From assembly GCA_037446815.1 (NCBI GenBank), contig JBBIHX010000003.1, positions 291-64,290 of the forward strand: a stretch of 64,000 nt of DNA. Direction: 5' to 3'. A program made the translations under genes and the position numbers. Below are positions 2,446-41,762 of this stretch, one piece after another (within the stretch, counting starts at the first letter, position 1; each line of letters starts with the position of its first letter). The notes under the pieces are model-generated. The model made no database searches and was not told where the DNA came from. It worked only from the letters and a program-made list of their open reading frames with translations. The stretch comes from Caldilineae bacterium. GTDB lineage: Bacteria > Chloroflexota > Anaerolineae > DTLA01.

Positions 2446-2466
2446 CGATTGAGGCGGGAGGTTCAC

Positions 2467-2937: not shown

Positions 2938-2955
2938 GTTGTACCCGAATCGCAC

Positions 2956-4239: not shown

Positions 4240-4280
4240 CAAACGTACCTGCGTTTCTACACCAATGAGGTAGGCGCTGC

Positions 4281-6782: not shown

Positions 6783-6801
6783 ATTCGCGAGAACTCGGGG
6801 A

Positions 6802-7806: not shown

Positions 7807-7847
7807 ATATGTGGGATGCAATCGTCTCACGTTGACAGAGGTGGGGC

Positions 7848-8824: not shown

Positions 8825-8875
8825 GCGCCCGCACGATTCGGTGCGGGGTCGCCGGGACTTGCACAGGAGAACGAG

Positions 8876-9181
8876 ATGACGCTTTCTTCGCTTCATTACT
8901 TTATCCTTAGCGCGATTCTGTTTGCCATTGGCGGCATAGGGGTACTGGTGCGCCGGAACGCCATCGTCATCTTCATGTGCGTGGAGATGATGCTGAATGC
9001 CGTCAACCTGTCCCTTATCGCCTTCGCGCGCTACCTGAACGGCGTGGACGGTCAGTTGCTGGTGCTGTTCGTGATGGCCATCGCCGCCGCCGAGGTGGTC
9101 GTCGGGCTGGCGATCCTGGTGGCGCTGTACCGGAAACGTCCCACCACGGACGTGGACGAGATGAATCTGCTGAAGGGCTGA
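8876..9181 (+). CDS. nuoK: NADH-quinone oxidoreductase subunit K
   Basis: A 101-aa three-helix membrane protein with a conserved NuoK-like pattern (...MLNAVNL...AAAE...GLAIL). Confidence 0.85.
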
Positions 9182-9319
9182 TGCGAGGCCCTGGCCTGTC
9201 ATCGGGCGCGAGGCTACGCACGCCGAGGGCCGGCGCGCCGCCGTCAGCCGGAGCCGCGGGGCGGCGAAGCATGGCCGGGGAACATCAAGAGTGAGGGATC
9301 ATAGGAGCGGGAGGAACGC

Positions 9320-11236: not shown

Positions 11237-11327
11237 AGCAAGCAGCGGTCAGCAATCAGCGGTTGGCTATCGGAATGGCTGACGGCTGAGTGCTCGCAAA
11301 GACAGTAACCAAGGAGACTCGGCGAAG

Positions 11328-12815
11328 ATGAATCAAATGGGCTTTCCACTCCTGACGCTGGTGGTCTGGCTGCCCCTATTGGGCGCTGTCCTGGCCTATG
11401 CATTCCGCCGCGAGCAGGTGAAGGCGGTCAAGACCTGGGCGCTGGCCGTAACCGGAATCACGTTTGTCCTGGCCGTGCTGTTGTGGGTCTTCTTCGCGCC
11501 GACCGAGGCGGGCTACCAGTTTGTGGATCGGGCCGCGTGGATTCCGCAGTTCGGGCTTGAGTACGCGCTGGGGGTGGATGGCATCAGCCTGTTCCTCGTC
11601 ATCCTGGCGGCGCTGCTGTTCGTCGTGGCGGTGCTGACCTCATGGCGGCTCGTCCCAGCCGAGGGGCTGCGCGGCTACTTCGCGCTGTTGCTCTTCATGG
11701 AGACGGGCGTGCTGGGCGTGTTCACGGCGCTGGATCTCGTGCTGTTCTACGTGTTCTGGGAAGTGATGCTGGTGCCGGCGTTCTTCCTCATCGGACGGTG
11801 GGGCGGCGCAAAACGCGTGCGGGCGGCCACCAAGTTCTTCATCTACACCATGGCCGGCTCGGCCCTCATGCTGGTCGCCATCCTGGCACTGGGGTACGCG
11901 GCGTATTCAGCCACGGGCGCGTGGACGTTCAACATCGCCGATTTGGCCGGGATGCGCATCCCGTGGTACACGCAGTTGGCGCTGTTCGGCGCGTTTGCGC
12001 TGGCGTTTGCGGTGAAGGCGCCTTTGGTGCCGTTCCACACCTGGCTGCCCGACGCCTACGTGGAAGCGCCCACGCCCGTAACGATTCTCCTGGCGGGCAT
12101 CCTGGGCAAGATGGGCGTGTACGGGTTCATCCGCTTCGCGATTCCGCTGTTCCGCGACGCGGCGGTGTTCTTCGCGCCCACGATTCAGATTCTGGCCGTC
12201 GTCGGCGTCCTGTACGGCTCGCTCATCGCGCTGGTGCAGACCGACCTGAAGCGGTTGGTGGCCTACTCCAGTTTGGCGCATGTTTCGCTCATCGTGCTGG
12301 GGCTGTTCGCGGTGAATGCGCAGTCCATGTCGGGCGCGGTGTTCCAGTCGGTGAGCCACGGCATCTACATCGCGGCGCTGTTTGCGCTGCTGGGTGCGCT
12401 GGAGGCCCGCAAGGGCACCCGCGACATCGCGGCGTTCGGCGGCGTGTGGAAGGCCGCGCCGGTGATGGGATTCTTCTTGCTTATCGCGGTGCTGGCGTCG
12501 GTGGGCCTGCCTGGGCTGAACGCCTTCGCGGGCGAGTTTGTGCTCCTGCTGGGCGTGTTCAAGGCGCAGAAGGTTTTCGCCGTCCTGGGCGCGCTGGGGA
12601 TGATCTTCGGCGCGTGGTACATGCTCACGCTGTTCCAGCGGGTGATGCAGGGCGCGGCGAAGCCCGAAGCCCTGGCCGACCTGACAGGGCTGGAGAGGGT
12701 AACCGTGGCGCCGCTGCTGTTGTTGGCGTTGGTCTTCGGCGTCCAGCCCAACCTGCTCTACGGCATCATCGTTCCGGCAGTGGAGGCGGTGGTCAAAGCG
12801 GTGGCCTCACGTTAG
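11328..12815 (+). CDS. nuoM: NADH-quinone oxidoreductase subunit M (antiporter-like)
   Basis: A 495-aa protein with the motif WLPDAYVEAPTPVTILLAGILGKMGVYGFIRF. Confidence 0.9.
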   Translation: MNQMGFPLLTLVVWLPLLGAVLAYAFRREQVKAVKTWALAVTGITFVLAVLLWVFFAPTEAGYQFVDRAAWIPQFGLEYALGVDGISLFLVILAALLFVVAVLTSWRLVPAEGLRGYFALLLFMETGVLGVFTALDLVLFYVFWEVMLVPAFFLIGRWGGAKRVRAATKFFIYTMAGSALMLVAILALGYAAYSATGAWTFNIADLAGMRIPWYTQLALFGAFALAFAVKAPLVPFHTWLPDAYVEAPTPVTILLAGILGKMGVYGFIRFAIPLFRDAAVFFAPTIQILAVVGVLYGSLIALVQTDLKRLVAYSSLAHVSLIVLGLFAVNAQSMSGAVFQSVSHGIYIAALFALLGALEARKGTRDIAAFGGVWKAAPVMGFFLLIAVLASVGLPGLNAFAGEFVLLLGVFKAQKVFAVLGALGMIFGAWYMLTLFQRVMQGAAKPEALADLTGLERVTVAPLLLLALVFGVQPNLLYGIIVPAVEAVVKAVASR

Positions 12816-12889
12816 CCGAATCGCGCTAGGCTCTAGGGGTCGGCGCGTTTCCCGAAGTCTGCCGATGTTCTTTGCGGAGGAAGACGTTC

Positions 12890-14335
12890 ATGGCGATTGA
12901 TCTACAGGTTCTCGCTCCGGAAGCGATTATCCTGGCGGTTGTGCTCCTGGCCCTGCTCCTCAACGCGCTGGGCGGCAAGCGGAGCACCGCGGCGATGGGC
13001 TGGCTGGCGCTGGTGGGGGTGATTCTCGCCGGAGCGGCCTCGCTCTACTACTGGGGGGATACGGCGCCCACCTTCCAGGGCATGGTGGGGGCGGATGGGT
13101 ATGGCCTCTTCGCCAACGTCGTGTTCCTGCTGGCGGCCGGCCTCGCCATCCTCATGGGGCTGGAAGCGGTGCGGCGATTTGACCTGCCCGCCGAGGTCTT
13201 CGTCCTCATCCTCATCGCGACCCTCGGCATGATGCTCCTGGGTTCGGCCATCAACCTGGTCGCGGTATTCCTGGCGCTGGAGATTCTCTCCATTTCGCTG
13301 TATGTGCTCACCGCGTCGGAGCGGGACGAGTGGCGCTCGCTGGAAGCGGGCATGAAGTACTTCATCCTGGGCGGGTTTGCGTCGGGATTCCTGCTGTTCG
13401 GCATCGCCATGATTTACGGGGCCACGGGCACGTTCTCGCTGGCCGCCGTGGGCGCGCAGGGGGCGTCGCTGTCGGCTCTGCGCGATGCGCCGCTCCTGGC
13501 CGCTGGGCTGATCTTCCTGCTCATCGGGTTCGCCTTCAAGGTAGCGCTGGTGCCGTTCCAGATGTGGACGCCCGATGTGTATGAGGGCGCGCCGTCGCTG
13601 GTAACCGCGTTCATGTCGGCGGGTGCCAAGGCGGCGGGGTTCGTCGCACTGATTCGCATCCTGGAGACCGCCTTCCCCTACTGGCGCGCCGAATGGGGCC
13701 TTGCGTTGGCGGTCATCGCCGTGCTGACCATGACGTGGGGCAACATGGCGGCCCTGGGCCAGCGAAGCGTCAAGCGCATGTTGGCCTACTCGTCCATCGC
13801 CCATGCGGGGTACATCGTCATCGGCGTGGCCGTGGCGGGCCGCGCGGGCTACGCCAGCGTGCTGTTCTACCTCATCTGCTACACGCTGATGAACGTGGGC
13901 GCCTTCGCGGTGATTCTGGCGATGGGGCACAAGTCGGCCCCCAACGAGGACATAGACGACTACGCCGGGCTGATACGGCGCAAGCCCGGGTTGGCTTTGG
14001 CCATGGGGCTGTTCATGCTGGCCCTGGCGGGCATTCCCCTCACGGCCGGGTTCCTGGCCAAGTTGTACGTCTTCTCCGCGGCGGTGGTGGAAGGGTACGC
14101 CTGGCTCGCCGCGGTTGCGCTCGTGAACGCGGTGATTTCCGCGTACTACTATCTGCGCGTGGCCGGGCGGATGTTCTTCGGCGAGGCGCGGGCGAATGCC
14201 TCGCCTGTCCACGTGTCGGCGCCGCTGGGCGTGGCGCTGGCGCTGACGGGCCTGCTGACGGTGATCCTGGGCGTGTATCCCGCGCCGCTCCTGAACCTCA
14301 TCCAGGCGGCGATACGCCCCATCGTTGGATTCTAG
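12890..14335 (+). CDS. nuoN: NADH-quinone oxidoreductase subunit N (antiporter-like)
   Basis: The ORF 12872..14335 carries the motif WTPDVYEGAPSLVTAFMSAGAKAAGF. The likely start is ATG 12890, 8 nt after a GGAGG RBS. Confidence 0.9.
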   Translation: MAIDLQVLAPEAIILAVVLLALLLNALGGKRSTAAMGWLALVGVILAGAASLYYWGDTAPTFQGMVGADGYGLFANVVFLLAAGLAILMGLEAVRRFDLPAEVFVLILIATLGMMLLGSAINLVAVFLALEILSISLYVLTASERDEWRSLEAGMKYFILGGFASGFLLFGIAMIYGATGTFSLAAVGAQGASLSALRDAPLLAAGLIFLLIGFAFKVALVPFQMWTPDVYEGAPSLVTAFMSAGAKAAGFVALIRILETAFPYWRAEWGLALAVIAVLTMTWGNMAALGQRSVKRMLAYSSIAHAGYIVIGVAVAGRAGYASVLFYLICYTLMNVGAFAVILAMGHKSAPNEDIDDYAGLIRRKPGLALAMGLFMLALAGIPLTAGFLAKLYVFSAAVVEGYAWLAAVALVNAVISAYYYLRVAGRMFFGEARANASPVHVSAPLGVALALTGLLTVILGVYPAPLLNLIQAAIRPIVGF

Positions 14336-17591: not shown

Positions 17592-20573
17592 CTAGCCCTT
17601 CATGACCGCCAGCGGGCGCAGGCGCGCGACCTTGCGGGCGATGCCAGCGGCGTGGATGGTGTCCACCACCGCGTCCACGTCCTTGTAGGCGTCGGGGGCT
17701 TCTTCCGCCAAGCCCGCCAGGCTCCCCGCGCGCACCTCAATCCCCTGCGCCTTGAGCTGCTCGCGCAGTTTCTCGCCGCGCACCTGGCGCTTGGCCTCGG
17801 CGCGGCTCAGTAACCGCCCCGCGCCGTGCGCCGCCGACCCGAACGTGTCCTCCATCGCCTTGTTGGTCCCCACCAGCACGTAGGATGCCGTGCCCATGTC
17901 GCCAGGAATCAGCACCGGCTGGCCGATGGCGCGGTAGTCCGGCGGGAGTGACGGATGGCCCGGCCCGAAGGCGCGGGTCGCTCCCTTGCGATGCACGCAG
18001 ACCTTGGTGGGCTTGCCCTCAATCACGTACTCCTCAATCTTGGCGATGTTGTGCGCCACGTCGTACACGACGCGCAGGTGCCAGTTGCGGAACCTGGACG
18101 CGAGAACCCGCTCAAAGGCCTGGCGCGCCATGTGGGTGAGGCACTGGCGGTTGGCCCAGGCGTAGTTGGCGGCCCCGGCCATGGCGCCGAAGTAGGCCTT
18201 GCCCTCCGGCGAATTGAGCGGCGCGCACACCAGTTCGCGGTCGGGCAGGCGGATGCCGTACTTCTGGACGGCGTTTTGCAGCGAGCGGACGTAGTCGGTG
18301 CACACCTGATGCCCTAGCCCGCGCGACCCCGAATGAATCTGCACCACCAGTTGCCCCTTGAACAGGCCCAGGGCGTCGGCCGCCTCCTCGTCGTAAATCT
18401 CCTCCACCTCCTGCACTTCCAAGAAGTGGTTGCCGGAGCCCAGGGTGCCCAATTGGTCGCGCCCGCGCGATTTGGCCCGCTCGCTCACCGCCGACGGGTC
18501 GGCGCCGGGCATGGCCCCGCGCTCCTCCAGGTGATCCAAATCCTCCGCGCTGCCGTAGCCGGCCCGCACGGCCCATTCGGCCCCCCGCACCAGCACGTCG
18601 TCCAACTGCTTGCTGGACAGTTTGATGGGGCCGGTCTCGCCCACGCCGCTGGGCACGGTGTTGTACAGAACGTTGATGAGATCGCCCATCAGCGGTTTGA
18701 CGTCGGCCGCGCTCAGCCCCGACGCCAGCAGGCGCACCCCGCAGTTGGACACGACAAACCCATTGGCGACGAAGTTGTGATCGCGGTGGGCGACGGTGAA
18801 ATCGTACACATCCCCCCGATAGTCGTCGGCAGGCTCCACGCGGACGACCGTATCCCAAGCCATGCCCGACAGCCCCAGGCCCGCGGTGGCTTCTTGCACA
18901 AACTGCGCGAAAGGCGGGAAAGCCTGCCCGACGCGCGGGTTCGTGCTTCGGCCTTCCCACAACGACCGTTCCACGAACCGCTCGTTGACCAAGGGCCCGA
19001 CCAGCGCACGCTTGACCTCCTGGACAGTCTTCCCGTCGGCGCGCAGGGCGACGGCCTGCACCGCCACCGCCTCACGCTGGGCGAGGGCCTGCTGTTTCAG
19101 GCGAAGGTACACCACCGCGATGCTCGCCAGGACACGCTTCTCGCGATGGCACTCAAACCCCACGCGGCTCCACAGGCGGATTAGGTTCTGGGGCGACGCC
19201 GCCACGGTCAGGCGCAGGCGCATCGACCGCGAGCCATCGGCACTTGTTTGCTCCAGGCGCTGCCCGATGGGGAGCGTCTCCACGCCGAAGTCCGCCAGCA
19301 CGTCGGCAACATCCCGAAGCCACTGCAGCCCGCTTTCCAGGAACGCCTCGCGCTTGTTGACCGAGAGCGTCGGCGCTTCAAAGGTGTAATCGTGATCCGT
19401 AACGGTTCCTGGGGCGGACATCTCCGCGCCGAAGAGCGCGCCGAGGAAGAGCCGCTTCTGCCACAAGGGGGCGCGCTTGATCCAGGCCGGCATGCGCCAG
19501 TCCGAGCGCGCCTTGTTGCCCAGGGGCAGGCCCAGCGCGGCCAGCAGGACGACAAGGGCCGTGGAACTGACCTTGAACCACGTCTCCACGTTTTCCAACT
19601 GGTACGCCTTGTACGGGGTGTAAATGGAGTGCTGGCGCGTGCGGGCGTACACGCGGGAGGGCGTGAAGCCGATGGCGCGAACATCCTCCCGCAGGTCTTC
19701 CAAATCCTCAACCCGCCCATAGCAGCATAGGACGCCCTTGCCGTTCGTGTGGAGCGTGAGCGTGCCGTCGCCCCACGCCGCGCCCATCAGGCGCAGGATG
19801 TAAGGCAGCGCGGGCGACGAGTACCGAAGGGGCAGCAAGCCCCGCCTCTCCAACTGGGCCAGAATCTGGGACGCCGCGTTGCCGGCGCTCCCCTTGCCCA
19901 GGCCCTGGAGCACGGACTCCACGTCGGCGCGGGTCAGAATCACATCGTCGGTGGGGCGCTCGTATGGGACGCCGTCAAACCCCATCACGGCGACCGTCTC
20001 GCCGGCGCGAATCTGGCCCAAGGGCCTCATGCCATCCGGCGTCCAAAACGGATGGTCCGCCGTGGCGGTTATCGTGCGGCCCGACGCCGTGTGCAGACGC
20101 ATAACCCGCGCCCGAGGGGGCTGGCGCAGGAACCGCACGATGCCGGTTCTCGCTTCTCGGTTGGCCGACAACGCCTGGCAGGCGAGGGTTTCGTCGCGCC
20201 AGTCGGCCTCTAGTTCGGCAATGGGACGGGTGTAGCCGAGGGCGGTTAGGACCAGGCTATCCCCCGCGAGGCAGTTGATGTCATATCCCACGCCGCCAGG
20301 CGAGATGACGCCGTCGGGATAGCGCGTCGCCGCCACGCCCCCGATGCTGAACCCGTATCCCTGGTGGATGTCGGGCATGGCGAGGGCGTAGCCCACGATG
20401 CCCGGGAGCGTAGTCGTGTTGACCAATTGCTCCACCGAGCGGTCCTTGAGCGCGATCTCCAGCATCTTCTCGTCCGCGTAGATGCGGGCGGGAACGCGCA
20501 TGTCGCTCCGGAACGTCTTGGGAATCTCCCACAGGTAATCGCTAATCTTGACGAAATCCTTCTTGGTAATCAT
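17592..20573 (-). CDS. rtcB: RNA-splicing ligase RtcB interrupted by an in-frame intein (993-aa precursor; exteins total 483 aa)
   Basis: N-extein (aa 1-100) ends ...GGVGYDIN. C-extein (383 aa) begins CGVRLL... and carries RtcB motifs (GSGNHF, HSGSRGLGHQ, HNIAKIEEY, AHGAGR). Confidence 0.9.
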   Translation of the reverse strand: MITKKDFVKISDYLWEIPKTFRSDMRVPARIYADEKMLEIALKDRSVEQLVNTTTLPGIVGYALAMPDIHQGYGFSIGGVAATRYPDGVISPGGVGYDINCLAGDSLVLTALGYTRPIAELEADWRDETLACQALSANREARTGIVRFLRQPPRARVMRLHTASGRTITATADHPFWTPDGMRPLGQIRAGETVAVMGFDGVPYERPTDDVILTRADVESVLQGLGKGSAGNAASQILAQLERRGLLPLRYSSPALPYILRLMGAAWGDGTLTLHTNGKGVLCCYGRVEDLEDLREDVRAIGFTPSRVYARTRQHSIYTPYKAYQLENVETWFKVSSTALVVLLAALGLPLGNKARSDWRMPAWIKRAPLWQKRLFLGALFGAEMSAPGTVTDHDYTFEAPTLSVNKREAFLESGLQWLRDVADVLADFGVETLPIGQRLEQTSADGSRSMRLRLTVAASPQNLIRLWSRVGFECHREKRVLASIAVVYLRLKQQALAQREAVAVQAVALRADGKTVQEVKRALVGPLVNERFVERSLWEGRSTNPRVGQAFPPFAQFVQEATAGLGLSGMAWDTVVRVEPADDYRGDVYDFTVAHRDHNFVANGFVVSNCGVRLLASGLSAADVKPLMGDLINVLYNTVPSGVGETGPIKLSSKQLDDVLVRGAEWAVRAGYGSAEDLDHLEERGAMPGADPSAVSERAKSRGRDQLGTLGSGNHFLEVQEVEEIYDEEAADALGLFKGQLVVQIHSGSRGLGHQVCTDYVRSLQNAVQKYGIRLPDRELVCAPLNSPEGKAYFGAMAGAANYAWANRQCLTHMARQAFERVLASRFRNWHLRVVYDVAHNIAKIEEYVIEGKPTKVCVHRKGATRAFGPGHPSLPPDYRAIGQPVLIPGDMGTASYVLVGTNKAMEDTFGSAAHGAGRLLSRAEAKRQVRGEKLREQLKAQGIEVRAGSLAGLAEEAPDAYKDVDAVVDTIHAAGIARKVARLRPLAVMKG
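18744..20273 (-). mobile_element. Intein (about 510 aa) with a LAGLIDADG-type homing-endonuclease core, inserted immediately before the conserved RtcB Cys of DIN|CGVR
   Basis: Block A is CLAGDSLV, block B is TADHPFWT, and the C-terminal block is VYDFTVAHRDHNFVANGFVVSN|C. Two LAGLIDADG-like motifs are present (LMGAAWGDG; FLGALFGAE). Confidence 0.85.
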
Positions 20574-22930: not shown

Positions 22931-23030
22931 CTTTTCACCGCCTTTTGAAGGTGCGAACGGCGCGGATAACTGTATGTATGATTATTATACCGGGCCGACG
23001 GTTTCCTGCCAAATGGATTTGAGGGAGGAC

Positions 23031-23177
23031 TCGGTTTCAAAGTCTGTTGGTATTTGTCATTGCGAGGGCGCGGAGCGCCTGAAGCAATCTCTGGGGCGTG
23101 AGGTTGCTTCGCTTCGCTCGCAACGACACACGAGGAGAGTGTGCCTACGGTTCACCAACACAAGATGGAACCGAATG
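23031..23177 (+). repeat. MITE-like dispersed repeat, family A (copy 1)
   Basis: Terminal inverted repeats GACTCGGTTTCA...TGGAACCGAATG. The internal hairpin is GTCATTGCGAGGGC...GCTCGCAACGACAC. Homologous to 52691-52840 and, in reverse orientation, 29384-29516. Confidence 0.7.
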
Positions 23178-23178
23178 T

Positions 23179-23376
23179 GGGGGAGGACTCGGTTTCAAAG
23201 TCTGTTGGCATCTACCGTCATTCTGAGCGGCGGAGAGCGAAGAATCTCGCTAGCCGAGATGCTTCGCCTTCGGCTCAGCATGACAGATGTGAGCGCAACG
23301 TGCGACGCACCTCCGAGGTGCGTCGCACGTAACCCTCTCCGCGTGGGCAGACCAACGCAAAATGGAGCCGTGTCAG
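23179..23376 (+). repeat. Second, chimeric family-A copy in direct tandem, carrying a family-B palindrome module inside
   Basis: Begins with the same GGGAGGACTCGGTTTCAAAGTCTGTTGG and ends with a degenerate right end (...AAAATGGAGCCGTGTC). The interior contains GAGATGCTTCGCCTTCGGCTCAGCATGAC and the perfect palindrome 23298-23330. Confidence 0.6.
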
Positions 23377-23455: not shown

Positions 23456-23881
23456 ATGGACTTCTCCATCCGCATTGACCCGAAAAGCAGCATACCGATC
23501 TTTGTCCAAATCATGAGCCAGATCAAGCACCTCATCGCGTCTGGCGCGCTTCAACCTGGGCAGCAATTGCCCACCATCCGCGAACTCGCCGTCAGCCTCA
23601 CGGTCAACCTGCACACGGTGGCCCACGCCTACGCGGAGTTGGAGAAGGAGGGCCTGCTCACCATCCAGCGCGGGCGCGGCACTTTTGTCTCCGAGCAGAG
23701 CGCCGACCACCAACTGGAGGACGTGCGCCTGCTCAAGTTGCAGAGCCTTGTGGAGGGGCTTTTTGTGGAGGCGCTGAATCTGGGGTACGATGTGGAGGAA
23801 GTCAGGCAGGCAGTTGAGCAGCATGTGGAGCGCTGGCGCACGACGGTGCAGCAGTCGCCCATAGATGCATGGGAGGAGTAA
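23456..23881 (+). CDS. GntR-family transcriptional regulator (short, YtrA-like)
   Basis: The GntR winged-HTH is QLPTIRELAVSLTVNLHTVAHAYAELEKEGLLTIQRGRGTFV. The short C-terminal region is typical of the YtrA subfamily. The likely start is ATG 23456 (MDFSIRID). Confidence 0.8.
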   Translation: MDFSIRIDPKSSIPIFVQIMSQIKHLIASGALQPGQQLPTIRELAVSLTVNLHTVAHAYAELEKEGLLTIQRGRGTFVSEQSADHQLEDVRLLKLQSLVEGLFVEALNLGYDVEEVRQAVEQHVERWRTTVQQSPIDAWEE

Positions 23882-23887: not shown

Positions 23888-24805
23888 ATGGAAGAAGAAA
23901 TCATACGCGGGCGGTTCATGGAAGGGGCCAGTTTCCAGTTCCGGGCGTTCAACACGCTTTCGTTCGTTATGGCAGCCATTGCTACGGGGGTGGGCATCCT
24001 CGTGGGGCGGCTGGCCGGCGACTGGCGCTGGGGGATTCCCTTGTACGTCGCGGCTGTGGCCCTGCTTTTCGGCTATAAGGTGGCGCAGCACTGGGAGCGG
24101 GCCGTGATCCTGCGCCTGGGCAAATTCCACCGCGTGGCCGGGCCGGGCAGTTTCTGGGTGATTCCCTTGGTGGATCGCATTGCGGCGTGGGTGGACCACC
24201 GCATGATGGTAACGCCCTTCGGCGCGGAGAAGACCCTCACCCGCGACACGGTGCCGGTCAACGTGGACGCCGTGCTGTTTTGGGTGGTGTGGGATGCCAC
24301 CAAGGCGGCGCTGGAGGTGAAGAACTACCGCATGGCCATCGCCTGGGCGGCCCAGACGGCGCTCCGCGACATCATCGGCAAAATGGATTTGGCGGACATC
24401 CTCGTGGGGCGCGAGAAGATTGACGCCGAACTCCAGCAAATCATTGACCACCGCACGACGCCCTGGGGCATCACCGTGGAGTCGGTGGAGATTCGCGACG
24501 TGGTGATCCCCGAGGCGCTGGAAGACGCCATGTCGCGGCAGGCCCAGGCGGAGCGGGAACGCCAAGCCCGCATCATCTTGGGCCAGGCCGAACAGCAGAT
24601 CGCCAAGAGTTTCCTGGAGGCGGCCCGCTACTACGAGGACCACCCGATGGCCTTTCGGCTGCGCACCCTCAATATGATTATGGAGGGAGTCAAGGAGCGC
24701 GGCTCGCTGGTGGTGGTCCCCTACGATGAGATGCGCGACTTGGGAACCATCGCGGGCCTCAGCGCGGTGCGCGACAAGGAAGCCGAGGAGAAGGCGAATT
24801 CCTGA
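23888..24805 (+). CDS. SPFH/band-7 (stomatin/prohibitin-like) membrane protein
   Basis: N-terminal TM helix, then an SPFH core (ERAVILRLGKFHRVAGPGSFWVIPLVDRI...) and a coiled-coil C-terminal region. Located 6 nt downstream of the GntR gene. Confidence 0.8.
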   Translation: MEEEIIRGRFMEGASFQFRAFNTLSFVMAAIATGVGILVGRLAGDWRWGIPLYVAAVALLFGYKVAQHWERAVILRLGKFHRVAGPGSFWVIPLVDRIAAWVDHRMMVTPFGAEKTLTRDTVPVNVDAVLFWVVWDATKAALEVKNYRMAIAWAAQTALRDIIGKMDLADILVGREKIDAELQQIIDHRTTPWGITVESVEIRDVVIPEALEDAMSRQAQAERERQARIILGQAEQQIAKSFLEAARYYEDHPMAFRLRTLNMIMEGVKERGSLVVVPYDEMRDLGTIAGLSAVRDKEAEEKANS

Positions 24806-24989: not shown

Positions 24990-25018
24990 TTGACAACCTG
25001 CGATTTCCGTGTTATAAT
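24990..25018 (+). promoter_or_regulatory. Near-consensus sigma70-type promoter (TTGACA-17 nt-TATAAT) for the FeS/NrfD/cytochrome operon
   Basis: TTGACA at 24990-24995 and TATAAT at 25013-25018 with a 17-nt spacer. A 7-N12-7 inverted repeat (TATAGTT...AACTATA, 25022-25047) lies immediately downstream. Confidence 0.65.
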
Positions 25019-25078
25019 GCGTATAGTTCTAGTAGACTATAACTATAGACCTTGCGCACAAGAGCGAGGAGAATCCCG

Positions 25079-25750
25079 ATGTCAGAACCGAAAGTAACGC
25101 GAAGGACATTCCTCCGCTACCTGCTGGGCACCGGCGCGGTAGCGGCTGCGGGCGGAGTTGGCCTGGGCCTGGCCCACGGCACGCAGGCGGCCCTGGCCCA
25201 GACGGATGCGCCGAAGGCCCGCTACGCCCTCATCATTGACACCACCAAATGCGTAGGTTGCGGCGCGTGCGTGCGGGCGTGCAACATCCGCAACAACCTC
25301 CCCGAGGGCAAGAGTTACATCCACATCGTGGCCAAGGATGAGCGGAACCATCAGTGGTTCCTGCCCGTGCAGTGCCAGCATTGCGCCGACGCGCCTTGTG
25401 CGCGGGTGTGCCCCACGCGGGCCACGTACCGCCACGAGAGCGGCGTCGTCCTCATCAACGAGAAACTGTGCGTCGGGTGCAAGTACTGCGAGGTGGCCTG
25501 CCCCTACCAGGCGCGCACCTTTGACGAGGAGCGGGGCGTGGTGGACAAGTGCTGGCTGTGCCTGGACTGGGTGAGCGAGGGCAAGAATCCGGCGTGTGTC
25601 CAGGCGTGCGTCCTGGGCGCGCGCCTTTTCGGGCGGCTGGATGACCCCAACAGCGAGGTCGCCCAACTGGTGGCGTCGGGCAGGGCCAAACCGCTGCATC
25701 CCGAATTCGGCACCCATCCGGCAGTCCTGCATTACATCATTGAGGAGTAG
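25079..25750 (+). CDS. Tat-exported 4Fe-4S ferredoxin-type subunit (NrfC/PsrB/DmsB-like)
   Basis: Twin-arginine signal RRTFLRYLLGTGAVAAAG. Multiple Cx2Cx2Cx3CP clusters (CVGCGACVRAC, CQHCADAPCARVCP, CVGCKYCEVACP, CWLC...C). GAGGAG RBS before ATG 25079. Confidence 0.85.
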   Translation: MSEPKVTRRTFLRYLLGTGAVAAAGGVGLGLAHGTQAALAQTDAPKARYALIIDTTKCVGCGACVRACNIRNNLPEGKSYIHIVAKDERNHQWFLPVQCQHCADAPCARVCPTRATYRHESGVVLINEKLCVGCKYCEVACPYQARTFDEERGVVDKCWLCLDWVSEGKNPACVQACVLGARLFGRLDDPNSEVAQLVASGRAKPLHPEFGTHPAVLHYIIEE

Positions 25751-25756
25751 TGTGCG

Positions 25757-26713
25757 ATGGGACAGACGGCCTGGGGTTGGTTGATCGCCATTTACCTGTT
25801 CCTCGGCGGGCTCGGCGCGGGTTCCTTCTTGATGGCCGCCCTCTTTGAACTGAGCGGCTGGCGCTATCGGAGCAAATTCTGCCCGGTGGCGCTGGTAGGG
25901 GCTACGGTGAGCGGGCCGCTGGTGGCCTTGGGCAGCGCCCTGCTCATCTTTGACCTGGGCGCGGGGCGCATGGAGCCCTGGCGCATCTTCTACATGTTCA
26001 CCCACTTCAGTTCGGTGATGACGTGGGGTATCTGGATTCTGAGCGTCTTCATCCCGCTCAGCCTGGTGTACGGGTTCCTGGAACTGATGGAATCCGAACC
26101 GTGGCTGAAGGGATTTGTGTCGGCGCGGCTGCCCTGGGTTCTGCGCAACGCCCGCACCTACCGCCGCTGGGTGGCCGCGGTCGGGAGCGTTTTCGCGGTG
26201 GCCACGGCCGTGTACACCGGCGTGCTCATCAGCGCGGTCGGGCCTGCTATCCCGCTGTGGAGCCAGCCGGTGCTGCCATTCCTGCGCATTCCGATGCTGC
26301 CCATCCTGTTCTTCATCTCGGCGATCTCCACCGGAATGGGCCTGACCTTTGACATCTCCGCCACCATCGCGGACCCCGAAATCCAGCGCCGATTCCGCGT
26401 CATGGACCTGAGCCACATCTTGCTCATCGGGTTGGAGAACATCGCCATCGGGCTGCTGTTCATCTCGGCGTTGAGCGCCGGGGGAGCCGCAGCCGAGGCC
26501 GCTCGCATCGTCCTGTACGGCCCCCTGGCGGTGGTGTTCTGGGTAGGCGTTGTGCTCGTGGGCCTTGTGTTCCCGTTCGTAGTCCACGCTTATGCCATTG
26601 GCCGAGGGCAGCACTCGCTGGCGTCAGGCGTCGGTTCCGGCGTGGGGATTGTCATCGCGGGCTTGCTGCTTCGCTACATGATCGTGTACGCGGGCATCCC
26701 GGCAGCCCTATAG
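25757..26713 (+). CDS. NrfD/PsrC-family integral membrane quinol-interacting subunit
   Basis: A 318-aa protein with about 8 TM helices. The N-terminal WLIAIYLFLGGLGAGSF is characteristic of NrfD-like proteins. It starts 7 nt after the FeS gene. Confidence 0.8.
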   Translation: MGQTAWGWLIAIYLFLGGLGAGSFLMAALFELSGWRYRSKFCPVALVGATVSGPLVALGSALLIFDLGAGRMEPWRIFYMFTHFSSVMTWGIWILSVFIPLSLVYGFLELMESEPWLKGFVSARLPWVLRNARTYRRWVAAVGSVFAVATAVYTGVLISAVGPAIPLWSQPVLPFLRIPMLPILFFISAISTGMGLTFDISATIADPEIQRRFRVMDLSHILLIGLENIAIGLLFISALSAGGAAAEAARIVLYGPLAVVFWVGVVLVGLVFPFVVHAYAIGRGQHSLASGVGSGVGIVIAGLLLRYMIVYAGIPAAL

Positions 26714-26734
26714 CGCGAACTGAGGTAGAGGACT

Positions 26735-28282
26735 ATGCTTCCAGCACGTTGGCCAAAATGGCTTCTGATCCCCCTCTCGTTGGCGGTTGTGGCCATCGCT
26801 GTGGTCGTTGGGCTTCTGGCCGAGCCGGTGGGGCAGGCGTTGTCTCCGAAGATCACGCCCGCGCCCACGCTGTACTTTATCGGCTACGCCGCGCCCCTGT
26901 CGCAGGAGTGCACCAAGTGCCACACCGACCCGCAGGCGTTGGCGGCTTCGGCCGAGTCGCCGGATACGGCTAAATCGGCGTACATTGATCCGGCGACGCT
27001 GAACACGCCCCACGGTCACCTGGGGTGCATCACGTGCCACGGCGGGACGGCCAATCAGGCCGACAAGAATGCCGCGCACGAGAATCTGGTGGCCGACCTG
27101 TCCAAGTCGCACCCGCAGGACTGCCTGACGTGCCACCGCAACCTGCCGGCGGAAATCCCAGAAGACAACCTGCGCACGCCGCACGGCGCGGTCGTGAACG
27201 CGGTCTGGGAAGGCTCCACGTGCGGCGTGTATTGTAGCGATTGCCACGGGGCGGTGGGCCATGGATTTGACCCCGTCTCCGGCGGAACGACGTGCTCCAT
27301 GTCGGTTTGCCTGGACTGCCACAAGGAGCGGAACCTGGGCGCGCGGCTGACGGACTGCGATACCTGCCACGTGGGGCCGCACGATGTGGCACAGGTCTTG
27401 AGTTGCAGCGACTGCCACACGTCCACCGAGACGTGGAAGCAGACCACACTGAAGGTGCACCCGATTCAACTGGTGGGCAAGCACGCGATGACAGACTGCT
27501 TCACCTGCCACAGGTGGCCCAACTTCAAGGGCCTGTCGGGCGTATGCAGCGATTGCCACAAGCGCCCGCACGAGTTCGGGAATGACAACTGCGCGCTGTG
27601 CCACACGCCACAGGGGTGGGCGGAGTCGGCCAAGGCGCTAGTGGCCGCGGCTGCTGCCATTCCTCACCCGACGCAGGGGCGCGAGGACTGCCGCTCCTGC
27701 CACGGCGTGCAAGGCGCGATGGCTCTGCCCGCTGATCACAAGGATCGCACGAACGACACGTGTCTGGTGTGCCACTCCCTGGCGCCGTCGCCCGCCATCC
27801 TCCACCCTGTGGAGGGGCGCGAGGCCTGCCTGGCCTGCCACGGCGAGGGCAAGATCGCGCAGTTCCCCGTGGCGACGCACGCCGGACGGGCCGAGTCCAC
27901 GTGCACCACGTGCCACGAGCCGGCGGGCGTAACGCCGCTGCCCATCTCGCACTCCACGCAGGGGCGTGAGGACTGCCTGATGTGCCACGCGCCGGGCGGT
28001 ATCAAGCCGTATCCCGAGACGCACGAAGGCTGGGGGAATATGCTCTGCCTGCTGTGCCACAAGGCCGGCGAGGCTCCCACCAAGGCGGAACACGTGTTCC
28101 CGCAGGATCACGACGGCGCGGCCAAGAACTGCGTGCTGTGCCACCCGAAGAACGACTTCACCACGTACCACTGCGAAACGTGCCACGCCACGGGCGGCAT
28201 GACGCAGGTCCACGGCGCGCGCGGCATCAAGGATATTCAGAACAAGTGCGTGTTGTGCCACCCAACGGGAAAGAAACCGTAG
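26735..28282 (+). CDS. Multiheme cytochrome c with 19 CxxCH motifs (515 aa), N-terminal signal-anchor
   Basis: I count 19 CxxCH motifs by eye (CTKCH, CITCH, CLTCH, CSDCH x3, CLDCH, CDTCH, CFTCH, CALCH, CRSCH, CLVCH, CLACH, CTTCH, CLMCH, CLLCH, CVLCH x2, CETCH). Three copies of an 'HP..GRE(D/A)C..CH' module are present. Confidence 0.9.
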   Translation: MLPARWPKWLLIPLSLAVVAIAVVVGLLAEPVGQALSPKITPAPTLYFIGYAAPLSQECTKCHTDPQALAASAESPDTAKSAYIDPATLNTPHGHLGCITCHGGTANQADKNAAHENLVADLSKSHPQDCLTCHRNLPAEIPEDNLRTPHGAVVNAVWEGSTCGVYCSDCHGAVGHGFDPVSGGTTCSMSVCLDCHKERNLGARLTDCDTCHVGPHDVAQVLSCSDCHTSTETWKQTTLKVHPIQLVGKHAMTDCFTCHRWPNFKGLSGVCSDCHKRPHEFGNDNCALCHTPQGWAESAKALVAAAAAIPHPTQGREDCRSCHGVQGAMALPADHKDRTNDTCLVCHSLAPSPAILHPVEGREACLACHGEGKIAQFPVATHAGRAESTCTTCHEPAGVTPLPISHSTQGREDCLMCHAPGGIKPYPETHEGWGNMLCLLCHKAGEAPTKAEHVFPQDHDGAAKNCVLCHPKNDFTTYHCETCHATGGMTQVHGARGIKDIQNKCVLCHPTGKKP

Positions 28283-28306
28283 TCTAGACGCAAGAGGAGA
28301 CGAAAG

Positions 28307-28414
28307 ATGTACGACTTCATCGGACCGGTAGCCTTGGTAGCCTTCGGTGTGCTGTCCATTCTCGGCGGCGCAATCGGCCAGGTTCTCGCACGGCGCCGCA
28401 CGGACGCCCACTAG
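28307..28414 (+). CDS. Unannotated 35-aa hydrophobic small protein (MYDFIGPVALVAFGVLSILGGAIGQVLARRRTDAH)
   Basis: Strong RBS AGAGGAGA 7 nt upstream of ATG 28307. One predicted TM helix with a basic C-terminal tail. Located 25 nt after the cytochrome stop. It falls below the 60-aa ORF-track cutoff. Confidence 0.45.
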   Translation: MYDFIGPVALVAFGVLSILGGAIGQVLARRRTDAH

Positions 28415-28521: not shown

Positions 28522-28947
28522 CTAGGGCGCGTCCGCGGCGTGGCCCAGGCTCACGTGGAAGACCAGTTCCCAATCCTCTATGGCGATGATGTCGCCGGGC
28601 CTCAGGCGTTCCGGCTTGAGCCGAAGCAGGCGCTTGCCGTTGAGCCACGTGCCGTTGATGCTGAGGTCGCTGATCCAGTACAGGCCGTTGGAGCGCGTGA
28701 TGACGGCGTGCTCGCGGGAGATGTACCGGTGATCCGAGCGCAAGACGAGGTGGCAATGCTCGGCTCGGCCGATGAGGAACTCGGCCGTGCGGATAGGGTG
28801 CCGCGATGAGCGCCCCCGTTTGCGTGCTTCAAGCCAGGCGTCCGCCGGGCCATCGCCCGAGTCGGCCAGGGTCATATCCGCGCCCCCTGCGCCGAAATGG
28901 CCTGGCGAGTCCCGCCCTCCCCACTTCTGGGGTAACGCCTGCATCAT
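28522..28947 (-). CDS. FHA-domain protein
   Basis: The FHA core is FLIGRAEHCHLVLRSDHRYISREHAVITRSNGLYWISDLSINGTWLNGKRL. The start is ambiguous (ATG at 28947, 28875 or 29043). Confidence 0.6.
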   Translation of the reverse strand: MMQALPQKWGGRDSPGHFGAGGADMTLADSGDGPADAWLEARKRGRSSRHPIRTAEFLIGRAEHCHLVLRSDHRYISREHAVITRSNGLYWISDLSINGTWLNGKRLLRLKPERLRPGDIIAIEDWELVFHVSLGHAADAP

Positions 28948-29383
28948 GCCTGCTCCCGACGATTCCCCATGCCGTCGGCTCACGGTTCTGCTGGAGCGCG
29001 GCGCATTTCGCGAGGTGAAACCCTTCCACTTCAATAATAGCATAACATATGCGGATTGTCAATCCCCTTTTCGCACATATTTCACCCTGTGAGAGCAGCG
29101 ACGCACGGCTGTTGCATTGGGAGCGGAGCGGTATCCACGAATAACACGAATCCACACGAATAAGGTTAGGGTGAGCGCCGCCCGACGCTGAAGCATCGGG
29201 CTGAGGGTGCAAAGCCCGGCGGGCTATCAGCCCCGAAGGGGCTTCTGCCCGTAGCGCGGGGCTTCAGCCCGGCGCCAGGGGTATCGCAACCGCGAATAAC
29301 GCGGATAGGTTTGGGGTGAAGAGAGACCTCACCCCCTGCTGGCGGACAGGGGGAGGCCGAAGGCCGGGGGTGAGGTGTTTCCG

Positions 29384-29516
29384 CCCGCGCCCTCGCAATG
29401 ACAGGCGGGGCCGGACTCCCTCGCCCTTCGGGAGAGGGCTGGGGTGAGGGGGATTGCTTCGGGCGCTCCGCGCCCTCGCAATGACAAATACCAACAGACT
29501 TTGGAACCGAATCGCC
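29384..29516 (-). repeat. MITE-like repeat family A, partial copy in reverse orientation
   Basis: The reverse complement reads GATTCGGTTCCAAAGTCTGTTGGTATTTGTCATTGCGAGGGCGCGGAGCGCCCGAAGCAATC..., matching the left half of the 23031 and 52691 copies. Confidence 0.6.
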
Positions 29517-34055: not shown

Positions 34056-34134
34056 CCCTGGAGATGCTTCGCCTTCGGCTCAGCATGACGGGGGAGGACA
34101 ACGTGCGACGCACTTCCGAAGTGCGTCGCACGTT
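34056..34134. repeat. Repeat family B copy (GAGATGCTTCGCCTTCGGCTCAGCATGAC...+ perfect 35-nt palindrome)
   Basis: About 80 bp homologous to 23257-23330. The perfect palindrome AACGTGCGACGCACTTC-C-GAAGTGCGTCGCACGTT spans 34100-34134 in the convergent gap between the secreted-protein gene and proS, so it is a probable bidirectional terminator. Confidence 0.6.
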
Positions 34135-36261: not shown

Positions 36262-37074
36262 ATGGCCCTTAAGGGAAACCTGAAGGATTTCGGCGTTGCC
36301 CAACTGCTGAACCTGATTCACATCGCCCGCAAGACAGGTGCCCTCTCTGTCCGCAGCAATGGATTGTCGGCCACGCTGTATTTCCGCGAGGGGAAGTTGC
36401 TCGGCGCGTACCAGGATAGCCGCGACGACAGCCTTCTGGCCCTGCTCCAGCGCGCCGGCAAGATCACGCCCCAACAGGCGGAGAGCATCTTGTCCCGCGC
36501 CGAGACGCGCACCGACAAGGAGGTCGGCCTCCTTCTCCTCCACAACAACTACGTAACGCAGAAGGACATCCTCCAGGTGGTGCGGGCGGCGGCGCTGGAG
36601 ACCGTGTACGCCATCTTCGCCCTCACCGATGGCACCTTCCAGTTTGATCCCAATCGGATGCTCCCCCAAGAGAAAATCGGCGTTCCCATTGACCTGGACA
36701 ACGTCATCATGGAAGGGACGCGGCGGATGAAGGAATGGGAGCAGTTGCAGGCCGAGTTGCCCGACCTGGACGTGGCCCTGAAGTTCACCGACAGGCCTGG
36801 GACTTCCCTGAAGAACATCAGCCTGAGCGTGGAAGAGTGGCGGGTCATCTCCTTCATCAGCCCGCGCAACACCATTCGCCAAATCGCCCAGTATATCGGC
36901 CTGAGCGAGTTCCAGATTCGCAAAATCGTGTACGGTCTCCTGACGGCGGGCTTGGTGGAACTGGTGCGGCCCGAGGGCGCGCTGCCCCCTGGCCTACCGG
37001 GTCTTCCGCCGTCGCCAGCGGTCAAGCGGGGGGTGATCTTGCGCTTGATTGACAAAATTCGCCGCATCAGCTGA
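36262..37074 (+). CDS. DUF4388-domain protein (MglA-associated regulatory partner type)
   Basis: The N-terminal MALKGNLKDFGVAQLLNLIHIARKTGALSV...YFREGKLLGAY is the DUF4388 signature by eye. The Pro/Gly-rich C-terminal tail begins 18 nt upstream of the GTPase gene. Confidence 0.7.
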   Translation: MALKGNLKDFGVAQLLNLIHIARKTGALSVRSNGLSATLYFREGKLLGAYQDSRDDSLLALLQRAGKITPQQAESILSRAETRTDKEVGLLLLHNNYVTQKDILQVVRAAALETVYAIFALTDGTFQFDPNRMLPQEKIGVPIDLDNVIMEGTRRMKEWEQLQAELPDLDVALKFTDRPGTSLKNISLSVEEWRVISFISPRNTIRQIAQYIGLSEFQIRKIVYGLLTAGLVELVRPEGALPPGLPGLPPSPAVKRGVILRLIDKIRRIS

Positions 37075-41714: not shown

Positions 41715-41762
41715 TAGAAGCCGGCAGGTGCGCTTGTACGACAGGTGTTAGGGAGGATAGAT

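Follow-up and report, generated by a model that had tools for sequence, protein, structure and literature searches.

Which reaction is served by an operon that encodes an iron-sulfur protein, an NrfD-like membrane protein and a cytochrome with 19 heme motifs, and no molybdopterin enzyme? Such an operon lies at positions 25079-28414 (+) of a 64,000-nucleotide stretch of contig JBBIHX010000003.1 (assembly GCA_037446815.1, Caldilineae bacterium; Chloroflexota, Anaerolineae), referred to here at its full length as the window. The operon probably encodes a repressor-controlled, molybdopterin-free quinol:multiheme-cytochrome c oxidoreductase that is specific to Anaerolineae-type Chloroflexota.

Four genes make up the operon. 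The gene for an NrfC-like ferredoxin (25079-25750, +; 223 amino acids, aa) starts at an ATG preceded by an AGGAG Shine-Dalgarno sequence that is kept in relatives. It is followed by the genes for an NrfD-like membrane subunit (25757-26713, +; 318 aa) and for the cytochrome (26735-28282, +; 515 aa), and by a small open reading frame (ORF) for a single-pass membrane peptide (28307-28414, +; 35 aa). The intergenic gaps are 6, 21 and 24 nt, and the four ORFs have a third-position G+C of 0.84-0.86 in window DNA of 65% G+C. A first-pass annotation had described three tightly packed genes, the last encoding a 515-aa cytochrome with 19 CxxCH motifs at about one heme per 27 residues. The tight packing is confirmed, with four genes instead of three, and the motif count is exactly 19 (515/19 = 27). 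Interruption of the heme motifs by frameshifts had been raised as a concern; the cytochrome ORF is unbroken and has the length of homologs at 64-92% identity, and frameshifts in the heme motifs are therefore absent. In a six-frame scan of the whole 64 kb, CxxCH appeared in no further ORF segment of 60 aa or more, so the cluster of 19 motifs is far beyond chance and is no artefact of G+C composition. The operon is intact and joins a predicted quinol-oxidising membrane module to an anchored 19-heme cytochrome outside the cell membrane.

The ferredoxin contains 16 cysteines in four groups (residues 58-68, 99-111, 131-141 and 158-177), which are the motifs for four [4Fe-4S] clusters, and matches Pfam Fer4_11 (E 1.7e-24). 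A twin-arginine translocation (Tat) motif, T-R-R-T-F-L-R, is present at residues 7-13 and is followed by a hydrophobic stretch and a likely ALA/Q cleavage site; the Pfam TAT_signal match, at 18.5 bits, is under its cutoff of 22.7. These features agree with the Tat-exported, four-cluster ferredoxin of the first-pass annotation. The nearest solved chains are PsrB (2vpw_B, E 3e-38) and ArrB (6cz7_B, E 5e-38). Among curated NCBIfam families the best score was obtained with DsrO (181.8 bits, cutoff 200), and the protein also remained under the cutoffs of the NrfC equivalog TIGR03149 (164.5 bits against 377.6) and TtrB (163.6 against 416), and far under those of HmcB (109.7 against 420) and QrcC (91.7 against 400). 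The protein is accordingly best described, as a prediction, as a four-cluster ferredoxin of the NrfC/PsrB/DsrO type, homologous to the beta subunits of complex iron-sulfur molybdoenzymes. A Tat signal of its own, as in NrfC, DsrO and HmcB, predicts export without a catalytic partner.

The membrane subunit matches Pfam NrfD (PF03916) over its full length (residues 3-314; E 5e-37; 128.6 bits, cutoff 25.8). NrfD was the sole family matched, with no Ni_hydr_CYTB/FdnI match in Pfam, and the score against the NrfD equivalog TIGR03148 was 83.1 bits, under its cutoff of 347.6. Eight hydrophobic segments are present and alternate loops are rich in lysine and arginine, so both termini are predicted to lie outside, as they do in PsrC (PMC8076601). 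Searches against Protein Data Bank (PDB) chains by sequence and by family profile gave no match, and the structure-based search alone succeeded: the AlphaFold2 (AF2) model (pLDDT 84.4, pTM 0.86) was matched by Foldseek to ActC (8k9e_C, E 3e-6, TM-score 0.76) and to PsrC (2vpw_C, E 4e-5, 23% identity). Across 30 homologs, Y13, S86, T154 and R306 do not vary, and conservation of D66 and Y153 is at least 90%. The conserved quinone-site residues of the NrfD/PsrC family, near the outer face, are a Tyr, an Asp, Glu or His in transmembrane helix 2, a Ser and a Tyr-Thr pair. The quinone-site residues of Wolinella succinogenes PsrC are Tyr23, Asp76, Ser94, Tyr159 and Thr160, with Arg305 in transmembrane helix 8 (TMH8), and MccD has an equivalent set (PMC8076601, Table 2). 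The set Y13/D66/S86/Y153/T154/R306 corresponds to the PsrC and MccD sites by position only, with no explicit alignment. The subunit belongs to the NrfD/PsrC family, with the eight transmembrane helices that this family arranges as two four-helix bundles and, as modelled, a PsrC/ActC-like fold. The NrfD/PsrC-type membrane protein named at first pass is thereby upheld by the full-length PF03916 match, the eight helices and the structural matches.

The cytochrome can be divided into three parts. Residues 1-300 (26735-27634, +) hold an N-terminal anchor and a 10-heme core common to the whole family. The single transmembrane segment (aa 10-28) is preceded by W6, P7 and W9 (motif W6-P7-x-W9), which are invariant in a 13-sequence alignment and at least 90% conserved in a 70-sequence alignment; their conservation ahead of the helix indicates a retained membrane anchor and not a cleaved signal. 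Topology and signal prediction gives a Tat motif on the ferredoxin, eight helices with both termini outside for the membrane subunit and one anchor helix for the cytochrome, which would place the iron-sulfur clusters and every heme at the outer face of the cytoplasmic membrane. Attachment of c-type heme is predicted at the 19 CxxCH sites. In the core, 10 CxxCH motifs are invariant across 70 homologs, together with His 93, 115, 150, 176, 216, 242, 250 and 279, M189 and C187, the last of which stands five residues ahead of a CxxCH. Residues 306-447 (27650-28075, +) form three tandem di-heme repeats of the pattern H-x3-GRE-x-C-x2-CH ... H-x6-C-x2-CH, visible both in the protein, where they match Pfam Paired_CXXCH_1, and in the DNA (family D1, 3 copies). 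Residues 448-515 and the stop codon (28076-28282, +) encode a C-terminal tri-heme cap with CxxCH at 466, 480 and 505. The same tri-heme module ends the homologous protein P0057 and, partly, P0120 (homologous proteins are labelled in this form, and related loci as L001 and so on).

The core is constant and the remainder varies. Homologs of 291-300 aa stop right after the core, without the di-heme repeats, and others add 2-5 hemes; the orthologs carry 10, 12-15, 19 or at least 45 hemes. The last figure comes from L037 (8001-10926; Chloroflexota MAG, metagenome-assembled genome, JBMOMT010000014.1), where the ortholog directly follows NrfC and NrfD and reaches the contig end; its 975 aa include at least 45 CxxCH. 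It is the extreme of the variable C-terminal extension. When the core was compared with 1.84 billion representatives of 50%-identity clusters, 29 matches were obtained at E <= 1e-30. About 20 best-scoring representatives align over the whole core, and most of the others only over residues ~190-297. This unit of ~100 aa and 4-5 hemes (window 27302-27625) matches hundreds of other proteins, and in the same library of 1.84 billion proteins giant multiheme cytochromes of up to 2321 aa contain as many as 28 copies of it.

Comparison with known cytochromes gave local similarity. The score against the MtrA/DmsE decaheme family TIGR03508 was 50 bits (cutoff 192) and involved residues 319-471 only; matches to PDB sequences were likewise local (MtrA 6r2q_A, E 2e-6; ActA, E 0.03), and a weak NrfH match in the C-terminal part was under cutoff. 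No kinship to NapC/NirT or CbcL was found, and no curated threshold was reached. An exact-sequence look-up of the cytochrome in public assemblies gave no entry. For the operon as a whole, the curated equivalogs tried (DsrO, NrfC, NrfD, TtrB, ArrB, HmcB, QrcC, DmsE and NrfH) all scored under cutoff and no operon protein was assigned to any of them. A structure for the heme wire was also predicted: an AF2 model was obtained from the 70-sequence alignment, but at pLDDT 64.9 and pTM 0.33, and Foldseek against the PDB returned nothing for it.

An NrfCD module can feed a catalytic multiheme cytochrome, as MccACD and SirACD show (PMC8076601), and the 19-heme protein could itself be a terminal reductase of that sulfite reductase type or of the NrfA/OTR type. 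The invariant C187 near a CxxCH could give a His/Cys heme, as such an enzyme might use. The ligands argue otherwise. In 34 full-length homologs 18 non-motif histidines are invariant and, with M189, provide 19 candidate sixth ligands for 19 hemes, a set that would fit an electron carrier with every heme six-coordinate over an enzyme with an open heme. The full 515 aa contain no CxxCK and no long-spacer motif (CxxxCH or CxxxxCH), and no NCBIfam match to NrfA, OTR or MccA was found. A range from 10 to at least 45 hemes among orthologs is also atypical of an enzyme active-site scaffold. A catalytic role for the cytochrome is on these grounds very improbable.

Relatives were collected by a scan of one genome per species, which returned 143. 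Every strong match (35-92% identity) is a MAG of Chloroflexota, Anaerolineae or Thermoflexales, with no isolate among them; the nearest MAGs (JADBJK01, JARYMK01 and DAOTVT01) include 'Chloroflexota bacterium Tumba.bins.16' (JADBJK01; 92% identity), and two Anaerolineae MAGs come next at 91% and 89%. The NrfC, NrfD and cytochrome genes are adjacent and colinear in ~50 Anaerolineae/Thermoflexales (Chloroflexota) loci. Homologous three-gene modules, which the first-pass annotation proposed to look for in metal-reducing bacteria, thus exist in Chloroflexota, where all strong matches lie in MAGs. In some relatives an NrfD-type domain is fused N-terminally to the cytochrome core. PF03916 is found on P0082, P0088, P0098 and P0116, and hhalign of P0082 against the NrfD family gave 82% probability (E 1e-5, 268 columns). 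Such fusions are strong evidence for physical association. Conserved synteny and fusions together support the reading of the module as a quinol:multiheme-cytochrome oxidoreductase. The cytochromes constitute a new, Chloroflexota-specific, membrane-anchored family with a conserved 10-heme core, modular C-terminal growth, occasional NrfD fusion and a conserved promoter and operator.

The absence of a molybdopterin catalytic subunit, which the first-pass annotation had claimed and which a neighbouring catalytic gene in relatives would have contradicted, is sustained in both respects. No PF00384 ORF occurs among the Pfam-scanned genes at 14.4-35.6 kb, and across the window a molybdopterin fold was seen only in the ORF for NuoG of complex I. 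Beside the module, no molybdopterin or NrfA-type gene is listed in the gene tables of L001 and L084-L087. Annotation pipelines label the NrfD homologs 'polysulfide reductase chain C', 'polysulfide reductase NrfD' or 'nitrite reductase membrane component', and the cytochromes 'hypothetical'; these are generic labels. No publication describing the Anaerolineae module was found in the literature searched, which is not proof of absence. The Chloroflexota literature found gives heme counts or uses 'nrfD' as a marker of nitrite reduction only, and describes no connection from the quinone pool to the extracytoplasmic side.

The operon is preceded by a sigma-70 promoter, TTGACA-17-TATAAT (24990-25018, +), which agrees with the consensus in 12 of 12 positions and also carries the TG of an extended -10, in line with the near-consensus promoter noted at first pass. 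Across 7 loci with protein identities of 52-92%, neither hexamer changes. A predicted palindromic operator, ATAGTTCTAGT-AG-ACTATAACTAT (25023-25046), comes directly after the -10 hexamer; it is an 11-bp inverted repeat that overlaps the predicted transcription start. The palindrome is unique in the window, with 0 matches expected in shuffles, and stands at a constant offset from the -35 hexamer in 9 loci. It contains the GT..AC core typical of GntR operators. A short GntR-family regulator (YtrA/PmtR-like) is encoded upstream at 23456-23881 (+; 141 aa from ATG; Pfam GntR E 1e-18); its best NCBIfam match is PmtR at 81.6 bits, under the cutoff of that family. The gene that follows it, at 23888-24805 (+), encodes an SPFH/Band-7 (stomatin/HflK-like) membrane protein (Pfam Band_7 E 8e-38), with orthologs 73-93% identical at the equivalent position in 7 related loci. 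In the 19-heme clade the GntR and Band_7 genes stand directly upstream of the operon, as seen in the window and in L001, L002, L004-L006, L009 and L033. This arrangement suggests a strong promoter that would be held off by a repressor, probably the GntR protein.

How would such a module work? We infer that the three proteins form a complex, that quinol is the substrate and that electrons flow outward to an extracytoplasmic acceptor. Menaquinol would be oxidised near the outer face of the eight-helix NrfD/PsrC-fold subunit, and the electrons would pass to the four [4Fe-4S] clusters of the docked, Tat-exported NrfC-like subunit. From there they would enter the helix-tethered cytochrome, travelling through the 10-heme core, the three di-heme repeats and the tri-heme cap, and would leave for an acceptor not encoded in the window. 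Energy would be conserved upstream, for example by complex I at 0.7-14.3 kb, and not by the module, unless NrfD pumps ions. A PsrC/NrfD-type module is not itself electrogenic unless its NrfD subunit translocates ions. Ion translocation by an NrfD subunit has been proposed (PMC8076601). The complex I genes span 691-14335 (+), with NuoG at 4281-6782 and NuoL/M/N-type antiporter subunits at 9320-14335. Complex I could supply both the quinol and proton motive force, and it is the likely source of the operon's quinol.

Several points weigh against this reading. The AF2 model of the cytochrome is poor and has no PDB match, and the geometry of the heme chain and the docking of iron-sulfur clusters to hemes draw no support from it. 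The quinone-site match is purely positional, and a search of PDB sequences with the family profile came up empty. Strong homologs are known only from uncultured MAGs or metagenomes. YtrA-like GntR regulators, such as the neighbouring one, more commonly serve the envelope or transport than respiration. The related Qrc and Nhc run towards quinone (PMC8076601), and sequence cannot give the direction of flow.

The last point opens the reverse possibility, in which an extracytoplasmic donor (reduced cytochromes, a hydrogenase or formate dehydrogenase, Fe(II) or a cathode) would deliver electrons to menaquinone, as Qrc and Nhc/Hmc do in sulfate reducers. NrfD modules work both ways, QrcABCD and NhcABCD being cytochrome c3:quinone oxidoreductases (PMC8076601), and hydrogenase genes adjoin the module in L084 and L085. 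However, the L085 hydrogenase comes with an anchor of its own, a cytochrome b, and the domain set of the L084 enzyme is that of a cytoplasmic NAD(P)-linked type, so neither needs the NrfCD-cytochrome module. The HmcB and QrcC scores of the ferredoxin are far under cutoff, the membrane subunit has 8 helices against 10 in QrcD, NhcC and DsrP (PMC8076601), and no soluble c3-type cytochrome gene lies nearby. Electron entry by this route is quite unlikely.

An NrfCD-type quinol module wired to a multiheme cytochrome is an already known kind of system. In architecture the operon comes nearest to Geobacter Cbc4 (CbcSTU), and then to the NrfBCD/NetBCD and SirCD modules. Cbc4 of Geobacter sulfurreducens (CbcS-CbcT-CbcU, GSU0068-0070) comprises an anchored tetraheme cytochrome, a protein with four [4Fe-4S] clusters and an integral membrane subunit, and is proposed to be a menaquinol:cytochrome c oxidoreductase without a catalytic subunit (10.1101/2025.04.14.648717). 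The three-part composition is identical, a likeness drawn from architecture and not from sequence comparison with CbcS, CbcT and CbcU. CbcS has 4 hemes and a NapC/NirT-type core, whereas the cytochrome here has 19 hemes and no NapC/NirT match; the phylum is another, and the envelope has two membranes in Geobacter and probably one here. CbcL is of a different type, with a HydC/FdnI di-heme b membrane domain fused to a multiheme c domain (PMC6295460), whereas the membrane subunit in the window matches NrfD only. The term 'Cbc-type' used at first pass is thus apt for the architecture, through Cbc4, but not for homology, given no NapC/NirT or CbcL kinship and no curated threshold reached. The broader proposal of a quinol:multiheme-cytochrome oxidoreductase holds in its anatomy, through the three-subunit content, the synteny, the fusions and the lack of a catalytic molybdoenzyme.

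In the NrfBCD (E. coli type) and NetBCD systems, NrfC-like and NrfD-like subunits likewise carry electrons from quinol to a multiheme cytochrome that is not catalytic. That cytochrome, NrfB or NetB, is a small soluble pentaheme, whereas the one here is tethered and has 19 hemes; in addition, the NrfC and NrfD equivalogs are not reached, and there is no NrfA and no MtrCAB. NetBCD of Aeromonas hydrophila is cited as a quinol dehydrogenase whose function in extracellular electron transfer has been characterised (PMC8805035, PMC9012536). The full E. coli-type NrfABCD does not apply: the cytochrome has no CxxCK, the 64 kb hold no second CxxCH ORF, and the relatives' tables contain no NrfA-like gene. 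MccACD and SirACD, the octaheme sulfite reductase systems, share a molybdenum-free NrfCD-type quinol module wired to a multiheme cytochrome, and MccD is likewise an eight-helix NrfD, whose Tyr/Asp/Ser/Tyr-Thr quinone-site pattern and TMH8 arginine correspond by position only (PMC8076601). MccA and SirA differ in being catalytic; the window cytochrome has no open-site signature and no match to their family.

Hmc/Nhc and DsrJOP, too, have at the outer face a multiheme cytochrome combined with iron-sulfur and membrane proteins of the NrfC and NrfD kinds. DsrJ too is N-terminally anchored. DsrMKJOP differs in several ways: the DsrO score is 181.8, under 200, the membrane subunit has 8 helices against 10 in DsrP, and the cytochrome has 19 hemes against the triheme DsrJ; the Pfam-scanned window ORFs include no DsrMK, DsrAB or cytoplasmic Hmc-type subunits. 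Clusters of NrfD, a 4Fe-4S ferredoxin and multiheme cytochromes in Methanoperedenaceae (groups 4-5, Leu et al. 2020) have been read as menaquinone:cytochrome c oxidoreductases, and their NrfD subunits cluster with Chloroflexota (Dehalococcoidales) sequences (PMC7327174). These clusters are archaeal and their cytochromes differ, the likeness being one of gene content alone. Alternative complex III (ActABCDEF), a quinol:cytochrome c oxidoreductase, provides the best structural match of the membrane subunit through ActC (TM-score 0.76) and the weak ActA match, but has an ActB-type molybdopterin-like domain, a second NrfD (ActF), ActD and ActE, none of which is found nearby, and 10 helices against 8. 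PsrABC-type molybdoenzymes (polysulfide, tetrathionate or dimethyl sulfoxide) differ in that no molybdopterin subunit accompanies the module. Members of the MtrA/DmsE decaheme family are soluble, periplasmic and porin-inserted, whereas the cytochrome here is membrane-anchored and scores under cutoff; no porin gene was found near the operon. DsrJOP, NrfABCD, Psr-type molybdoenzymes and alternative complex III each fail at least one of the defining features tested.

To what acceptor would the electrons go? The gene neighbourhoods of relatives provide a lead. A multiheme cytochrome gene containing an in-frame UGA lies within ~2.7 kb downstream of the module in 28 of 40 related loci (~70%; the 40 are those with at least 2.7 kb of downstream sequence), mostly with a tandem rhodanese gene between. 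In L001 the pair lies upstream, and L001 and L007 combine the pair with the 19-heme form. The rhodanese protein (2-4 tandem copies) has a signal peptide, an intact active-site Cys loop, CYTGQTA / CYTG(Q/H)T, and a sortase-type C-terminus, in which LPVTG or PETG is followed by a transmembrane segment and a basic tail. Examples are found at L001 3760-4854 (-), L084 10916-12037 and L085 10980-12965, always between the NrfCD-cytochrome and UGA-cytochrome genes. The rhodanese/UGA-cytochrome pairing also occurs without NrfCD in Bacillota (L062-L083).

The UGA-cytochrome is split by pipelines into two ORFs that are one frame: a lipoprotein-like N-terminus with one heme, the sequence ...SEGEG-TGA-GG..., and 9-10 further hemes. 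Examples are L001 2195-3682 (-), L085 13049-14449, L086 14061-15614, L084 12102-12556 and L069 ~8000-9310 (Anoxynatronum buryatiense). The in-frame TGA is kept in 26 loci, none of which has a Cys codon in its place; these belong to Chloroflexota, Bacillota, Phycisphaerae and Calditrichaceae, with Syntrophomonadaceae and Clostridiaceae represented, and two of the sources, Anoxynatronum buryatiense and A. sibiricum, are isolates. About 12 nt past the TGA there is a stem-loop such as GCCTCC-GTT-GGAGGC. The conserved TGA and stem-loop look like a selenocysteine (Sec) site, and the protein is probably a selenoprotein, representing what is probably an undescribed family of selenocysteine-containing 11-heme cytochromes. 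It matches no NCBIfam model, including those of the ExtKL and octaheme tetrathionate reductase families, both of which are listed as selenoproteins (PMC13188914). The pentaheme selenoenzyme MccSep of Geobacter, a polysulfide reductase (PMC13510729), was considered as its identity and rejected, as the heme count, Sec position and taxonomic range differ.

The linkage of rhodanese and Sec-cytochrome suggests reduction of sulfur or selenium compounds, not minerals. On this basis the module could be the quinol-dehydrogenase arm of sulfur/selenium-compound (for example polysulfide) reduction, with the terminal rhodanese and Sec-cytochrome pair encoded elsewhere in the genome, which we regard as possible, if rather doubtful. 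The downstream linkage in 28 of 40 loci, its occurrence with the 19-heme form in L001 and L007, the retained active-site loop and sortase-type C-terminus of the rhodanese, and the TGA and hairpin kept in 26 loci of several phyla all favour it. A membrane-bound uptake hydrogenase is encoded next door in L085, an arrangement that resembles Wolinella Hyd-Psr-Sud. Precedents exist in the polysulfide reductase MccSep (PMC13510729) and the multiheme selenoprotein ExtKL (PMC13188914). On the other hand, the pair is absent from the whole 64-kb window and from the nearby flanks of its closest relatives L004-L006 and of L008, L009, L033 and L087, the function of the UGA-cytochrome family is itself only predicted, with no NCBIfam match, and linkage in other clades does not prove use in the clade of the window. 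The clade of the window, which lacks the linkage, carries nine extra hemes instead. In this clade the pair may sit elsewhere in the genome, or the nine extra hemes may serve a different acceptor.

A different acceptor had been named in the first-pass annotation, which envisaged extracellular or periplasmic sinks such as metal oxides or electrodes. This part of it found no support: the window has no other cytochrome, and the linked partner in relatives is rhodanese with the UGA-cytochrome. Even so, the 19-heme cytochrome could be a wire through the wall of a single-membrane bacterium that delivers electrons directly to Fe(III)/Mn(IV) minerals, electrodes or syntrophic partners. The hemes would lie outside the membrane on a tethered protein, and the modular C-terminal extension, by which heme number goes from 10 to 19 and in L037 to 45 or more, is in keeping with selection on reach. 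The unit at residues 190-297 has up to 28 counterparts in a single giant multiheme cytochrome, and Anaerolinea genomes are noted for large multiheme cytochromes to which a role in extracellular respiration is ascribed (10.1101/2021.08.23.457424). The Chloroflexi isolate Ardenticatena maritima is electroactive and has a single-membrane envelope (PMC5808234). Against these stand the lack of any mineral- or electrode-linked expression or phenotype on record for any member, the lack of a second cytochrome in the window, and the next genes in most relatives, which are not metal surface reductases of a known type. Spanning of the wall by 19 hemes is also unsupported, as the structural model of the cytochrome failed. 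Direct delivery to minerals, electrodes or partners is therefore unlikely on present evidence. The sulfur/selenium lead from relatives deserves weight equal to that of the metal sink, and the preferred reading, a quinol:multiheme-cytochrome c oxidoreductase, is compatible with either.

The fourth gene of the operon encodes a 35-aa peptide with one transmembrane segment, a basic C-terminus and no Pfam match. It is 86-91% identical in L004-L006 and 54% in L008, and comparable transmembrane peptides follow the cytochrome gene in L001, L033 and L087. It may be a fourth subunit. Directly downstream lies the convergent gene of a forkhead-associated (FHA) domain protein (28522-29043, -), which is kept there in L004-L006 (71-74% identity) and has its own sigma-70-like promoter at 29034-29062, matching at 11 of 12 positions. 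In 33 related loci (for example L001 5160-6680, L085 6609-8078 and L086 7350-8801) a PadR + PatA_N (DUF4388) protein of ~490-506 aa is encoded; it stands beside the module in the majority of loci with the short cytochrome. The window has only a 270-aa DUF4388 protein (36262-37074), 8 kb downstream, and the GntR/Band-7 pair holds the upstream place in the 19-heme clade.

Inverted repeats of 62 nt (23028-23089 and 29452-29513) bracket the block from GntR to FHA. A mobile cassette bounded by these repeats was considered and rejected, as the repeats belong to dispersed intergenic families, some with palindromes. The first family has copies at 23017-23091, 23175-23248, 29452-29513 (inverted) and 52690-52837, and the 62-nt pair is 95% complementary; the second is found at 23256-23330 and 34061-34133. 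Copies are also present at several sites in L004, L006 and L019, which marks them as genome-wide elements resembling repetitive extragenic palindromes or miniature inverted-repeat transposable elements (REP/MITE-like) and not as cassette ends.

Elsewhere in the window, putative and divergent System II cytochrome c biogenesis genes are located at 61469-63600 (-). The first-pass annotation had reported such genes, and this stands in part. The product of 62263-63600 (-) has a weak ResB match (30.8 bits, cutoff 24.6), but its presumed CcsA partner, a polytopic membrane protein encoded at 61469-62422 (-), has no Pfam or NCBIfam match; its Trp-rich stretch 'WAWLNWGMIWRSDP' is degenerate and only resembles the CcsA WWD motif. 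A 993-aa RtcB RNA ligase ORF at 17592-20573 (-) has a large insertion that starts 'CLAGDSLVL', ends '...VVSNC' and, judged by its translation, looks like an intein. A 2921-aa hybrid histidine kinase with ~12 GAF domains, PAS, HisKA/HATPase and two receiver domains is encoded at 42710-51475 (+) and is preceded by a receiver-GGDEF protein gene (41745-42674).

Sediments, hot springs, digesters and anodes harbour abundant Anaerolineae, whose genomes are rich in multiheme cytochromes. The module described here is a conserved, clade-wide candidate for linking the Anaerolineae quinone pool to extracytoplasmic redox chemistry. Current annotation names can mislead metabolic reconstructions towards nitrite or polysulfide reduction. 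Because the operon is compact, with a clear promoter and operator, its proposed function is testable. The linkage of rhodanese and a probable selenoprotein in relatives adds a concrete second hypothesis, sulfur/selenium respiration, beside mineral reduction. More speculatively, and with low probability, the module could lead in one piece from the menaquinol pool to the surface of a filamentous, single-membrane Chloroflexota cell, as a quinol dehydrogenase with a tethered heme wire whose length evolution sets by adding or removing heme modules (10, 13, 15, 19 and at least 45 hemes in orthologs) and which is sometimes fused to NrfD. If true, this would provide the missing molecular basis for the suspected electroactivity and interspecies electron transfer of Anaerolineae.

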